Positions 3,001-7,110 of a stretch of 8,206 nucleotides of DNA are shown one piece after another. Source of the stretch: a virus. Taxonomy: Duplodnaviria; Heunggongvirae; Uroviricota; Caudoviricetes. The notes below the pieces were generated by a model. The model did not search any database and was not told the DNA's origin. It saw nothing but the letters and a program-made list of their open reading frames with translations. The stretch lies in the IMG/VR virus record IMGVR_UViG_2671180490_000005. One strand, 5' to 3'. The stretch's first letter is position 1. Each line of letters opens with the position of its first letter. A program made the translations under genes and the position numbers.

Positions 3001-5626
3001 TACAGTTTGAGTTCTGGTTCTCGGAAAAGCGGATTACCGATATCAGGCAGGTTGAAACCACAGCCCGCTATCTTGGTACGGCGCTGTACTGGATAGCCGC
3101 CAGTATCAATATCAAACCGGGCCATGATTATTACTTTTATATCCGCAGTGTGAACACCGTTGGCAAATCGGCATTCGTGGAAGCCGTCGGTCGGGCGAGC
3201 GATGATGCGGAAGGTTACCTGGATTTTTTCAAAGGCAAGATAACCGAATCTCATCTCGGCAAGGAGCTGCTGGAAAAAGTCGATCTGACGGAGGATAACG
3301 CCAGCAGACTGGATGAGTTTTCGAAAGAGTGGAAGGACGCTAACGATAAATGGAATGCCATGTGGGGCGTCAAAATTGAGCAGACCAAAGACGGCAAACA
3401 TTATGTCGCGGGTATTGGCCTCAGCATGGAGGACACGGAGGAAGGCAAGCTGAGCCAGTTTCTGGTTGCCNCGGCGACAGAGCTTGTGGAGGATACGCAG
3501 GCCATTGCCCGTTACGGTCGTAATGTCACGAAGATGGATGCCTTTGGCTGTACCAGCCGGGGGCAGGCACACCGAGCCGGGCTGTGGCTGATTAAAACGG
3601 AACTGCTGGAAACGCAGACCGTGGACTTCAGCGTGGGCGCAGAAGGGCTTCGCCATGTACCGGGTGATGTCATTGAAATCTGCGATGATGATTATGCCGG
3701 TATCAGCACCGGTGGTCGCGTACTGGCGGTGAACAGCCAGACCCGGACGCTGACGCTCGACCGTGAAATCACGCTGCCATCCTCCGGTACCACGCTGATA
3801 AGCCTGGTTGACGGAAGTGGCAATCCGGTCAGCGTGGAGGTCCAGTCCGTCACCGACGGCGTGAAGGTGAAAGTGAGCCGGGTTCCTGACGGCGTTGCAG
3901 AATACAGCGTGTGGGGGCTGAAGCTGCCGACGCTGCACCAGCGATTGTTCCGCTGCGTGAGTATCCGTGAGAACGACGACGGCACGTATGCCATCACCGC
4001 CGTGCAGCATGTGCCGGAAAAAGAGGCCATCGTGGATAACGGGGCACACTTTGACGGTGACCGGCGCGGCACGGTGAATGGTGTCACGCCGCCAGCGGTG
4101 CAGCACCTGACCGCCGAAGTCACCGCAGACAGTGGGGAATATCAGGTGCTGGCGCGCTGGGACACGCCGAAGGTGGTGAAGGGTGTGAGCTTCCTGCTCC
4201 GTCTGACCGTAACAGCGGATGACGGCAGTGAGCGGCTGGTCAGCACGGCCCGGACGACGGAAACCACATACCGCTTCACGCAACTGGCGCTGGGGAACTA
4301 CAGGCTGACAGTCCGGGCGGTAAATGCGTGGGGGCAGCAGGGCGATCCGGCGTCGGTATCGTTCCGGATTGCCGCACCGGCAGCACCGTCGAGGATTGAG
4401 CTGACGCCGGGCTATTTTCAGATAACCGCCACGCCGCATCTTGCCGTTTATGACCCGACGGTACAGTTTGAGTTCTGGTTCTCGGAAAAGCGGATTACCG
4501 ATATCAGGCAGGTTGAAACCACAGCCCGCTATCTTGGTACGGCGCTGTACTGGATAGCCGCCAGTATCAATATCAAACCGGGCCATGATTATTACTTTTA
4601 TATCCGCAGTGTGAACACCGTTGGCAAATCGGCATTCGTGGAAGCCGTCGGTCGGGCGAGCGATGATGCGGAAGGTTACCTGGATTTTTTCAAAGGCAAG
4701 ATAACCGAATCTCATCTCGGCAAGGAGCTGCTGGAAAAAGTCGATCTGACGGAGGATAACGCCAGCAGACTGGATGAGTTTTCGAAAGAGTGGAAGGACG
4801 CTAACGATAAATGGAATGCCATGTGGGGCGTCAAAATTGAGCAGACCAAAGACGGCAAACATTATGTCGCGGGTATTGGCCTCAGCATGGAGGACACGGA
4901 GGAAGGCAAGCTGAGCCAGTTTCTGGTTGCCGCTAACCGTATCGCGTTTATTGACCCGGCAAACGGGAATGAAACGCCGATGTTTGTGGCGCAGGGCAAC
5001 CAGATATTCATGAACGACGTGTTCCTGAAGCGCCTGACGGCCCCCACCATTACCAGCGGTGGCAGTCCTCCGGTATTTTCCCTGACATCAGACGGAAAGC
5101 TGACCGCTAAAAATGCGGATATCAGTGGCAGTGTGAATGCGAACTCAGGAACGCTCAACAATGTCACGATTAACCAGAACTGTACGATTAAGGGCATGCT
5201 GGAGGCGACCCAGGTCAGAGGGGATTTCGTTAAAGCTGTATCAAAAGCCTTCCCGAAAAAAGTCGGTACGTGGGGTAACACGGAAACACCAAACGGTACG
5301 GTTACAGTCACCATCAGCGATGATCATAACTTTGACCGCCAGATTATTATTCCGCCCATTATTTTTAACGGTATAGCGTATGACGATCCGGGGAGCGGAA
5401 ATAACCCAGGAGGCACGCGATACACGGGTTATGGTTTTGAAGTTCGCAAAAACGGCGTATTAATCGCATCCAGAGAAACTAAAGGGGCCATTCCCGGTAG
5501 TTACAGTGCAGTTATTGATATGCCTAGTGGTGGTGGTAGCGTCACTCTGGAGTTTAAGATTTTCCAGAAAGGCAATCAGGGGGCAGGCAATATCACCGAC
5601 TGTACGGTGATTGTGACCAAAAAAGC
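33..5626 (+). CDS. J: Lambda-like host-specificity / tail-tip protein J (allele A). As written it is expanded by internal duplications and its 3' end is cut by the N-run at 5627; the native protein would be about 1130 aa.
   Basis: ATG at 33 with GGAG at 21-24 upstream. The N-terminus [34 protein letters not shown]... and most of the length match lambda gpJ as I recall it, including the fibronectin-III-like segment [38 protein letters not shown]. The frame is open throughout except for n-containing codons. The last readable residues ...CTVIVTKK(A) parallel the end of the second allele (...[14 protein letters not shown]). Confidence 0.9.
1320..2807 (+). repeat. Direct tandem duplication inside J: two 744-bp units (1320-2063 and 2064-2807), joined at the ambiguous base 2063.
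   Basis: The peptide [42 protein letters not shown]...STARTTET occurs twice in tandem in the J frame. The unit length of 744 nt is a multiple of 3, so the frame is preserved. The copies differ at scattered sites, for example gacgggcaggggaat versus gacggaagtggtaat, and H versus R in LHQRLF / LRQRLF. Confidence 0.9.
3472..4931 (+). repeat. Third copy, about 1.46 kb, of the J segment equivalent to 1267-2062 plus 2808-3470 (without the nested 744-bp repeat), joined at the ambiguous base 3471.
   Basis: After n3471 the sequence cggcgacagagcttgtggagg... restarts at the equivalent of 1267 ([25 protein letters not shown]...) and runs colinear through ...[12 protein letters not shown] at about 4931. 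The offset is about 2205 nt, a multiple of 3. It carries its own substitutions, such as caccgagccggg versus caccgcgccggg, ggaagtggcaat, and DRRG versus DQSG. Confidence 0.9.
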
Positions 5627-5633
5627 NNNNNNN
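5627..5633. other. Run of 7 ambiguous bases (N-gap), probably a scaffold or assembly junction.
   Basis: The seven n characters are seen directly. The J reading frame upstream (frame of 33) and downstream (frame of 5635) differ, and the sequence on either side is not colinear in J (C-terminal end of J versus mid-J). Confidence 0.95.
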
Positions 5634-5634
5634 C

Positions 5635-7110
5635 AGCACAGCCAGGACGACGGAAACCACATACCGCTTCAGGCAGCTGGCGCTGGGGAATTACAGTCTG
5701 ACAGTCCGGGCGGTAAATGCCCGGGGGCAGCAGGGCGATCCGGCGTCGGTATCGTTCCGGATTGCGGCACCGGCAGCGCCTGTCACTATTGAACTGATAC
5801 CGGGGTATTTTCAGATAACGGCGGTCCCGAAACTGGCTGTATATGACCCGACGGTGCAGTTTGAGTTCTGGTTTTCGGAAAAGCGGATTGCGGATATCAG
5901 GCAGGTTGAAACCACAGCACGCTATCTTGGCACGGCGCTGTACTGGATAGCCGCCAGTATCAATATCAGGCCGGGCCATGATTATTATTTTTACGTTCGC
6001 AGTGTGAACACCGTTGGCAAATCGGCATTCGTGGAGGCCATCGGTCGGGCGAGCGATGATGCAGAAGGTTATCTGAATTTTTATAAAGGGTTGATCAATA
6101 AAACGCATCTCGGCAAGGAGTTGTGGACGCAGATTGATAACGGTCAGCTTGCGCCGGACCTGACTGAAATCAGGACGTCCATTACGAATGTCAGCAATGA
6201 AATCACGCAAACCGTCAATAAAAAACTGGAAAATCAGAGTGCTGCAATCCAGCAGATACAGAAAGTTCAGGTTGATACAAATAATAACCTGAACAGCATG
6301 TGGGCTGTGAAGCTGCAACAGATGAAGGACGGACGCCTTTATATTGCGGGTATCGGTGCCGGTATTGAGAATACGCCAGCAGGAATGCAGAGTCAGGTGC
6401 TGCTGGCGGCAGACAGGATTGCGATGATTAATCCTGCGAATGGCAACACAAAGCCGATGTTTGTTGGTCAGGGCGATCAGATATTCATGAACGACGTGTT
6501 CCTGAAATGCCTGACGGCTCCGACCATTACCAGCGGCGGTAATCCTCCGGCATTTTCCCTGACACCTGGCGGACGGCTGACGGCGAAAAATGCCGATATC
6601 AGCGGTAACGTGAACGCGAACTCCGGGACGCTCAACAACGTCACGATTAATAAGAACTGTCGGGTTCTGGGAAAATTGTCCGCGAACCAGATTGAAGGCG
6701 ATCTCGTTAAAACAGTGGGCAAACCTTTCCCACGGGACTCCCGGGCACCGGAGAGGTGGCCATCAGGGACCATTACCGTCAGGGTTTATGACGATCAGCC
6801 GTTTGATCGGCAAATTGTTATTCCCGCGGTGGCGTTTCGCGGTGCTAAACATGAGCGGAAGAATAACAATATTTATTCGTCATGCCGCCTGATAGTGAAG
6901 AAAAACGGTGCTGAAATTTATAACCGAACGACCCTGGATAATACGCTGATATATACGGGTGTTATTGATATGCCTGCCGGTCACGGTCACATGACGCTGG
7001 AGTTTTCTGTATCGGCATGGCTGGTAAATGGCTGGTATCCCACAGCAAGTATCAGCGATTTGCTGGTTGTGGTGATGAAGAAAGCCACTGCAGGCATCAC
7101 GATTAGCTGA
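5635..7110 (+). CDS. J: Host-specificity protein J, allele B: a 5'-truncated 3' portion (about 491 codons) with a divergent receptor-binding C-terminal region. This is the copy physically linked to lom.
   Basis: The frame is open from 5635 ([60 protein letters not shown]...) to TGA at 7108-7110, and contains the listed ORF 5854-7110. It is colinear with lambda J from about residue 670 to the end. The region 5635 to about 6100 is a diverged copy of 2790-3250 and 4250-4710; from about 6100 to 7110 it diverges strongly from allele A apart from conserved islands such as [19 protein letters not shown] and [23 protein letters not shown]. Confidence 0.85.

Follow-up and report, generated by a model that had tools for sequence, protein, structure and literature searches.

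Does a single tail-fibre gene J carry two alternative receptor-binding domains (RBDs) side by side? This question is raised by an 8,206-nt stretch of DNA, hereafter called the window, from a Caudoviricetes virus (IMG/VR record IMGVR_UViG_2671180490_000005). A first-pass annotation had described a J allele, A, that breaks off at 5626, a run of seven Ns (5627-5633) and a second J 3' portion, allele B, and all three are present in the window. Both RBDs lie on it as well, but the claim that they are directly adjacent did not stand: the gap is followed first by about 1.0 kb from the middle of J (5634-6648) and only then by the allele B RBD, and the first 500 nt of this middle stretch repeat, with ~87% nt identity, sequence of the pre-gap fragments at 2780 and 4241. 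Based on the comparisons given below, we consider it very probable that the side-by-side arrangement of A and B is a chimera of paralogous prophage J genes that arose during draft assembly or scaffolding.

Besides the run of seven Ns, the window has single Ns at 1448, 2063 and 3471. The N at 1448 is an ambiguous base only, and other copies read C there. The remaining sites join a chain of four overlapping J fragments (S1 to S4, Table 1), which were mapped onto one J gene, with S4 extending from J nt 2004 to the end. Each breakpoint of these fragments falls exactly on an N, and the gap between A and B is only one of three such joins. The seven Ns do not stand for a small gap in colinear sequence: allele A stops at J nt 3389 of 3414, and the sequence restarts after the gap at J nt 2004 of a 3480-nt J, in another reading frame.

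Table 1. Features of the window. Positions count from its first letter; J nt, nucleotide position in the J gene.
Feature	Position	Strand	Basis or remark
Fragment S1, 5' part of J gene	1..2062	+	ATG at 33; J nt -32..2030
Putative chimeric join 1, single N	2063	.	743 nt backward in J coordinates; direct repeat families D1/D2
Fragment S2, internal J piece, A-type haplotype	2064..3470	+	J nt 1288-2694; 99.4% to RM14721 J
Putative chimeric join 2, single N	3471	.	1460 nt backward in J coordinates
Fragment S3	3472..5626	+	J nt 1235-3389 of 3414; internally mosaic
Allele A RBD, phage 434 type	5163..5626	+	Cut 25 nt short; without AASGISIR and stop
Putative chimeric join 3, seven Ns	5627..5633	.	~1.39 kb backward in J coordinates; frame changes
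Fragment S4, J part: 3' 1477 nt of a 3480-nt J gene (allele B)	5634..7110	+	Stop TGA 7108-7110
Second variable module of J (tail-tip fibre region)	6090..6400	+	28 aa longer in allele B than in allele A
Allele B RBD, complete, VT1-Sakai (Sp15) type	6649..7107	+	PF12421 at 2-135/135
Terminator-like hairpin and T run after J allele B	7129..7158 (hairpin 7129-7148)	+	Terminator scan
lom (Ail/Lom outer-membrane protein)	7178..7777	+	Pfam PF06316, E=4e-129
Terminator-like hairpin 3' of lom	7804-7825		Terminator scan
Side tail fibre gene stf, N-terminal part, truncated by insertion	7842..8153	+	PF08400 phage_tail_N, profile 1-104/134; stf homology stops at 8153
Insertion sequence end	8144..8206	+	Match ~50 nt upstream of IS21-family istA in E. 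coli 2/0

The frame of allele A opens at the ATG at 33 and reads to 5624, after which the GC of the next Ala codon (5625-5626) borders the gap. Allele B starts at 5635 in a frame different from that of allele A and, as had been noted before, is contiguous with a stop codon, a terminator and lom; the order J, stop, terminator, lom and stf is thus found in the window for allele B. The 1919-aa J ORF of the window results from reading through three joined fragments along with out-of-frame sequence, and no uninterrupted J ORF of ~1130-1160 aa is present in the window. At the first join the protein passes from ...TARTTET to VTKMDAFG..., and the joins at 2063 and 3471 both keep the J reading frame, for which the chance probability is ~1 in 9.

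The fragments probably also differ in their origin. S1 has a single collinear match to contig L001 (2276-4337, 96.3%). Where S1, S2 and S3 all overlap, they represent three different haplotypes, separated by 27, 29 and 33 mismatches. S2 and S3 show 33 mismatches overall and are identical from 2605 on, except for one mismatch at 2723; the end of S2 is the exact start point of the allele A region in S3. Within S3, the first part (3472-4105) matches the sibling J-B gene with 4 mismatches, and from 4066 the sequence matches the A-type J of RM14721, with 2 mismatches up to 4500 and 100% thereafter (150-nt windows). The switch from a J-B-like to a J-A-like haplotype lies between 4066 and 4105. S4 is 98.7% collinear with J-lom-stf of FDAARGOS_943 and 99.9% with sibling contig L008.

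Taken literally, this layout would be a genuine tandem array: one J gene whose 3' end exists as alternative RBD cassettes, or as partial tandem duplications, between which recombination could switch and so alter host range. Such an array would fit with the presence of two unlike RBDs, each complete or nearly so, on one strand within 1.5 kb, and with the two of three joins that are in frame; switching of tail-fibre tips exists in other phages (Mu Gin, P1 Cin, DGRs). However, all joins are Ns, the reading frame is not kept from A to B, and the final 8 codons and the stop of allele A are missing. Neither the ORF list nor Pfam gave a recombinase or reverse transcriptase ORF in the window, and its inverted repeats are confined to two short and weak pairs, one of 18 nt with 83% complementarity and the other inside an RBD. 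Neither an uninterrupted junction nor flanking repeats together with an enzyme, as expected of a tandem or switchable cassette, were found.

Complete genomes point in the same direction. A single-N junction was counted as present if the 120-mer spanning it was covered to at least 80%; by this measure the junction at 2063 occurs in 0 of 5,426 complete E. coli genomes, and the junction at 3471 in 0/5,426 as well. A search of viral and genome contigs for the 2063 junction, with N as a wildcard that may not match a stored literal N, gave no match either. None of the best-matching complete genomes is colinear with the window; in the 25 best, its 8.2 kb collapse to ~4.2-4.5 kb, or to 6.7 kb in two strains with an ISEc12 insertion. 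N-free clonal relatives moreover have a single J, and one J per prophage is what all 23 N-free loci examined show; we regard a tandem array as extremely unlikely. A real join at 5627-5633, with 434-type and VT1-Sakai-type 3' cassettes in tandem that would be switched by homologous recombination between the repeated J middles, is less probable still.

The relatives of the locus allow a further reading to be weighed, namely that IS elements or recombination scrambled a genuine prophage in an IS-rich (Shigella/EIEC-like) genome and left a remnant in which the fragments would truly lie in tandem and the Ns would be no more than low-quality bases. The IS insertion in stf at the locus is in line with this, ipaH adjoins the prophage in the nearest complete genomes, the N at 1448 is indeed a mere ambiguous base, and multi-copy contigs occur in sibling assemblies too. 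However, the breakpoints vary by sibling assembly (4953 and 7319 in L006; 1619 in L007; 7274 and 10455 in L009) and never occur without N, while IS sequence was found at 0 of the 3 joins. The stf::IS junction of the window was found in 6 IMG/VR contigs and had no match in genome contigs. N-free L010 and L011, which share this junction, each contain lom and a single intact J of 1159 aa with allele B at its end, and thereby speak against scrambling; in N-free L008 the J gene is likewise single and of B type, and a 140-nt duplication splits it. Among the 27 fetched loci with a J RBD, all that are free of Ns (23/23) have exactly one RBD, and those with two or three (L006, L007, L009) as well as the window all contain N joins. 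We thus judge a scrambled remnant to be very unlikely. The recurrence of single-N joins in sibling assemblies is nevertheless a point against a chimera and could, in principle, reflect a shared real rearrangement; the breakpoints there differ, however.

It had been proposed that a chimera would be revealed by an allele A with its own stop codon and a different lom elsewhere, and this is what was seen. The A-type J of RM14721, whose RBD is identical in amino acids, has its own stop codon followed by its own lom, while the A-type J genes of the siblings L007 and L009 (RBD 97% aa identical) end in ...KKAASGISIR and a stop, followed by a different lom. Together with the chain of fragments, the absence of the single-N junctions and the N-free siblings with allele B only, this agrees well with the earlier suspicion that the assembly drew in allele A as the tail of a J from a different prophage. 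PCR closure of the gap, which had been recommended, would miss its aim, since there would be no real adjacency to close.

To account for the chimera, we propose that the source genome, from a lineage of E. coli/Shigella type, has three or more J genes of lambdoid prophages, which would be almost identical for long stretches and diverge in discrete modules. These paralogues may have been broken and mis-threaded by the assembler, and the scaffolder would then have chained four overlapping fragments, with N characters marking each join. SSPACE probably writes a single n for non-positive gaps, a convention that forms no part of the evidence here. One putative gene, J-B, would encode 1159 aa, with its middle at 3472-~4085 and its 3' end at 5634-7110, followed by the terminator, lom and the IS-disrupted stf. 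A second one, J-A, would encode 1137 aa and comprise 2064-3470 and ~4100-5626; elsewhere it would end in the ...KKAASGISIR tail, with a lom of its own behind it. At least one further J copy would be the source of 1-2062. Alternatively, the sequenced sample might have contained another strain or a phage contaminant that supplied the extra fragments; the window would then still be an artefact. Three haplotypes 2-4% apart could equally be strain variants, yet paralogy alone suffices, given a median of 3 and a maximum of 15 J-lom-stf-like places per complete E. coli genome. Sibling assemblies, moreover, independently contain both A- and B-type J genes. Such a mixed origin has only a minute probability in our view. 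Record LC567841 has both alleles naturally together, ~48 kb apart, in tandem prophages.

Irrespective of their arrangement, both C-termini are ordinary gpJ receptor-binding domains. Both alleles match Pfam PF12421 (Ig_GpJ_C), and solved homologues match both domains at E<1e-70. The allele A-bearing fragment contains PF13550, PF24421, PF24489, PF09327 and PF12421 (profile 1-109/135, truncated), and matches the structures 9wca with E=8e-79 and 8iyk with E=8e-71. Allele B comprises PF24421, PF24489, PF09327 and PF12421, with matches to PDB 9wca (A8 gpJ) at E=2e-97 and to lambda J 8iyk at E=5e-74. Over the last ~150 aa, identity is 39% between A and B, 36% between A and lambda J and 40% between B and lambda J (about 36-41% pairwise); the first-pass annotation was right that both C-termini differ from that of lambda. 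Further upstream, the A/B protein alignment has 7/40 and 16/40 identities in the second variable module (6090-6400), compared to 32-38/40 on its N-terminal side and 24-33/40 beyond it. In lambda, the J tip is a trimer that attaches to a porin of the outer membrane and sets off DNA ejection, and the RBDs of A and B probably act in the same way. Both RBD classes are real variants and already known.

For allele A, whose missing tail was taken from L001 with its intact 1137-aa J, the RBD is identical to that of 434 J in 147/151 aa and to that of RM14721 J in 151/151 aa; identity to 434 and to lambda h434 imm21 is 96.6-97.3%. Phage 434 targets OmpC (PMC12502783), and the 97% identity to this phage suggests that allele A binds OmpC, too. 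The RBD of allele B is identical to that of FDAARGOS_943 (153/153 aa) and shares 141/153 aa (92%) with VT1-Sakai; 54 phage records fall into the 90-95% band. In the literature searched, no published receptor assignment was found for VT1-Sakai-type J or for PhiR/ECOR13 phages. The suggestion that the two alleles imply different host receptors is answered in part: A is of the type of 434, which uses OmpC, and B has no assigned receptor in that literature. The nearest characterised relatives of allele B over the RBD are phage 21 J (65%) and gpJ-A8 (62%). The native receptor of phage 21 is LamB, and it is one mutation away from OmpC use (PMC11336670), whereas the engineered gpJ-A8 uses OmpC (PMC11338833; PDB 9wca). 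As phage 21 and A8 are 81% identical, yet use different porins, the receptor of allele B is not readable from 62-65% similarity; our best guess is a trimeric porin from the class of LamB, OmpC and OmpF. The OmpC phage phi330 (PMC12502783) was considered as a stand-in for allele B and rejected, because its reported loop numbering and its 35-40% identity to 434 and to lambda give no tie to the B class. The sequence of the OmpC-specific gpJ-1A2, which was sought for comparison, was not found in the supplements of PMC11338833. VT1-Sakai class J RBDs are common in Stx and other EHEC prophages.

For annotation, this means that neither the J ORF of 1919 aa nor the seemingly tandem RBDs should be recorded or tallied as a novel tail-fibre architecture. 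N-bounded repeats of this kind occur again in sibling assemblies, and automated RBD-based surveys of host range should screen for them. The underlying biology is ordinary polylysogeny, i.e. several lambdoid prophages per genome with different known J RBD classes.

If compared to known systems, both alleles resemble lambda J (PF12421; PDB 8iyk, 8xcj) in the domain order Phage-tail_3, Ig_J, Ig_J_second, Phage_Tail_Tip and Ig_GpJ_C, with matches to the lambda J structures at E of about 1e-71 to 1e-75, and allele B in addition shares the gene order I-J-lom-stf. They differ from lambda in the last ~150 aa, where only 36% (A) and 40% (B) are identical to the LamB-binding domain. Allele A shares its J length class (1137 aa) with the central tail fibre J of phage 434 (OL657226), the h434 host-range determinant; its RBD differs from 434 J by four substitutions and is, in the window, cut 8 residues early by the contig break. 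The same RBD also occurs in the long-tailed Stx2 phages WGPS6 and 2851 and in mEp460. Allele B has the J-lom-stf layout of the VT1-Sakai (Sp15)/PPompW/Stx2a_WGPS2 class, from which it is ~8% diverged. The arrangement as a whole corresponds to what short-read drafts of polylysogenic E. coli/Shigella show when paralogous prophage genes are collapsed or mis-scaffolded: overlapping fragments of a gene family are chained with N spacers. The breakpoints lie where paralogues diverge, sibling assemblies are alike at other breakpoints, and nothing distinguishes the window from this class of draft assemblies.

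The side-by-side arrangement of alleles A and B, the two versions of the C-terminal receptor-binding domain (RBD) of the lambda-type tail-tip attachment gene J, is very probably an assembly chimera and not a real genomic feature. The first-pass annotation had described two differing J C-terminal regions around a run of seven Ns (5627-5633), and this description was confirmed: the peptides quoted for both alleles are found in the translated window. Allele A is read in the frame of the ATG at 33 up to 5624 and runs on into the gap. Allele B lies in another frame beyond it, ends with TGA at 7108-7110 and is followed by the annotated hairpin and lom.

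Direct-repeat analysis revealed J stretches of great length in three copies within the window. The four N-delimited pieces, S1 to S4, were placed on full-length J genes of complete genomes (see table). Backward jumps in J coincide exactly with the single Ns at 2063 and 3471 and with the 7-N run; the single N at 1448 marks no more than an ambiguous base. S2 ends at the equivalent of S3 position 4931, where the annotated allele A region starts, and S4 starts at what corresponds to position 4241 of S3. Since the flanks of the 7-N run overlap by about 1.39 kb in J coordinates and differ in frame, the run does not represent a small hole in colinear DNA.

Features of the window and N joins of sibling assemblies
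Feature	Sequence	Position	Placement or remark
S1	window	1-2062	J nt -32..2030
S2	window	2064-3470	J nt 1288-2694
S3	window	3472-5626	J nt 1235-3389 of 3414
S4	window	5634-8206	J nt 2004 to end of 3480-nt J, plus lom and stf
Terminator-like hairpin	window	7129-7148	3' of allele B J
lom	window	7178-7777	Pfam Ail_Lom, E=4e-129
stf (side tail fibre) N-terminus	window	from 7842	after lom
N joins	L006	4953, 7319	
N join	L007	1619	
N joins	L009	7274, 10455	

The chimeric single-N joins at 2063 and 3471, upstream of the A/B join, are both in frame and yield a J ORF of 1919 aa (33-5792), which is spurious. We treat the frame being kept at two of three joins as coincidence (chance about 1 in 9). On the minus strand, a 1245-aa antisense ORF opposite J (1125-4862) extends over two of the chimeric joins. 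This purely mechanical ORF has no support and, in its assembled form, cannot represent a gene.

A true tandem RBD cassette, or a switching system within J, is contradicted by several lines of evidence: the joins are marked by Ns, the join from A to B shifts the frame and leads backwards in J, allele A has no stop codon, meaningful inverted repeats, a recombinase and a reverse transcriptase are all absent from the window, and N-free relatives carry a single J. Such relatives could be identified through the window's final ~60 nt (8144-8206), the end of an insertion sequence that cuts stf after about 104 codons and matches DNA just upstream of the IS21-family istA of E. coli 2/0. Six IMG/VR contigs (L006 to L011) share this exact stf::IS junction, which thus serves as a clonal marker. 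Two of these, the N-free L010 and L011, contain one intact 1159-aa J with the allele B end, then lom and the truncated stf. L008, also N-free, has a single B-type J split by a 140-nt duplication. At ~930-1219 of this contig, window 930-1079 is matched twice, which indicates that the duplication is in tandem, and J lies in two frames (ORFs 30-1157 and 1055-3649). The split J may be a true pseudogene or a further error of assembly.

The remaining siblings, L006, L007 and L009, are interrupted by single Ns and carry more than one RBD copy, either two or three (three in L009). Their N joins are non-colinear, lie among J and lom fragments and differ in position per assembly; in L007, for example, lom is joined via N into the middle of the B-type J. 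Such recurrent single-N joins suggest systematic behaviour of one assembly pipeline. A real prophage remnant scrambled by IS elements is contradicted, as the breakpoints differ in every sibling assembly and IS sequence is absent at the joins. We fetched 27 loci with a J RBD. The 23 among them without Ns possess exactly one RBD each, while N joins occur in every locus with more than one, as in the window. The A-type allele of L007 and L009 ends with ...VIVTKKAASGISIR and a stop, followed by its own, different lom. This is the outcome the first-pass annotation had named for a chimera, and its attribution of allele A to another prophage's J is supported.

Complete genomes agree with an assembly chimera. 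In the 25 best-matching E. coli genomes the 8.2-kb window folds onto a J-lom-stf region of ~4.2-4.5 kb, except for two strains with an ISEc12 insertion (~6.7 kb). None of 5,426 genomes covered at least 80% of the 120-mers centred on joins 2063 and 3471; matches break off at the join. At the DNA level, allele A matches the 3' end of normal J genes of 1137 aa with 100% identity, such as that of strain RM14721, where 25 nt more (AASGISIR, stop) precede lom and stf. For allele B, FDAARGOS_943 and several human isolates have a normal J of 1159 aa whose end shows 99.8% DNA identity, again with lom and stf 3' of it and, in FDAARGOS_943, with an ipaH gene close by. A mixed sample is an unlikely source of the extra J fragments and would likewise be an artefact; it is not needed, given the number of J-like places in complete E. 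coli genomes (median 3, maximum 15). Moreover, the 90-kb record LC567841.1 naturally holds both types in one genome, in tandem prophages at ompW (B-type J at ~36.5 kb, A-type at ~84 kb, thus ~48 kb apart).

S1, S2 and S3 differ in their common overlap by 27, 29 and 33 mismatches and represent three haplotypes; therefore at least three J copies were present in the sample. S3 itself is a mosaic. Its part 3472-4105 shows only 4 mismatches to the B-type J of L010, while from 4066 on it follows the A-type J of RM14721, with only 2 mismatches in the stretch up to 4500 and 100% identity in 150-nt windows across 4222-5571. Hence S3 follows the B-type haplotype to ~4085 and the A-type one thereafter, with the switch inside 4066-4105. 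It could be a chimeric contig or else a J gene that recombined naturally. The real B-type gene would likely comprise 3472-~4085, about 150 nt missing from the window, and 5634-7110. The real A-type gene likely runs from 2064 to 3470, is continued by 4932-5626 and requires 25 missing nt.

Both RBD alleles are already known classes. Each is recognised by Pfam PF12421, the profile of the C-terminal RBD of J: allele B along its whole length, whereas the alignment of allele A stops at position 109 of 135 owing to the contig break. Sequence comparison also links both to the solved structures of lambda J and A8 gpJ (E 1e-71 to 1e-97). They are conserved through ...GTLNNVTIN and share 39% identity beyond. 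A second variable module (~6090-6400) lies in the tail-tip fibre region upstream of the RBD; there, identity is ~20-40% between better conserved flanks, and B is 28 aa longer. Swapping the lambda J C-terminus from residue 964 on is enough to retarget the particle (PMC11338833), and A, B and lambda begin to diverge at a position consistent with this swap point.

Allele A is of the phage 434 type, sharing 147 of 151 aa with 434 J, and the same RBD is found in lambda h434 hybrids, the Stx2 phages WGPS6 and 2851, and mEp460. Because phage 434 targets OmpC (PMC12502783), allele A very probably uses OmpC as well. Allele B is of the VT1-Sakai/PPompW/WGPS2 type (92%). In the reference prophage VT1-Sakai (AP000400, 484-3956) the annotation divides J into two overlapping CDS and attributes its truncation to a mutation; the J of this best-known carrier of a B-type RBD may thus be defective. 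The nearest characterised relatives of allele B are phage 21 (65%), whose native receptor is LamB and which is one mutation short of OmpC use (PMC11336670), and the engineered gpJ-A8 (62%, PDB 9wca), whose receptor is OmpC (PMC11338833). As these two are 81% identical and differ in receptor, the receptor of allele B is not assignable from sequence, and our best guess is a trimeric porin.
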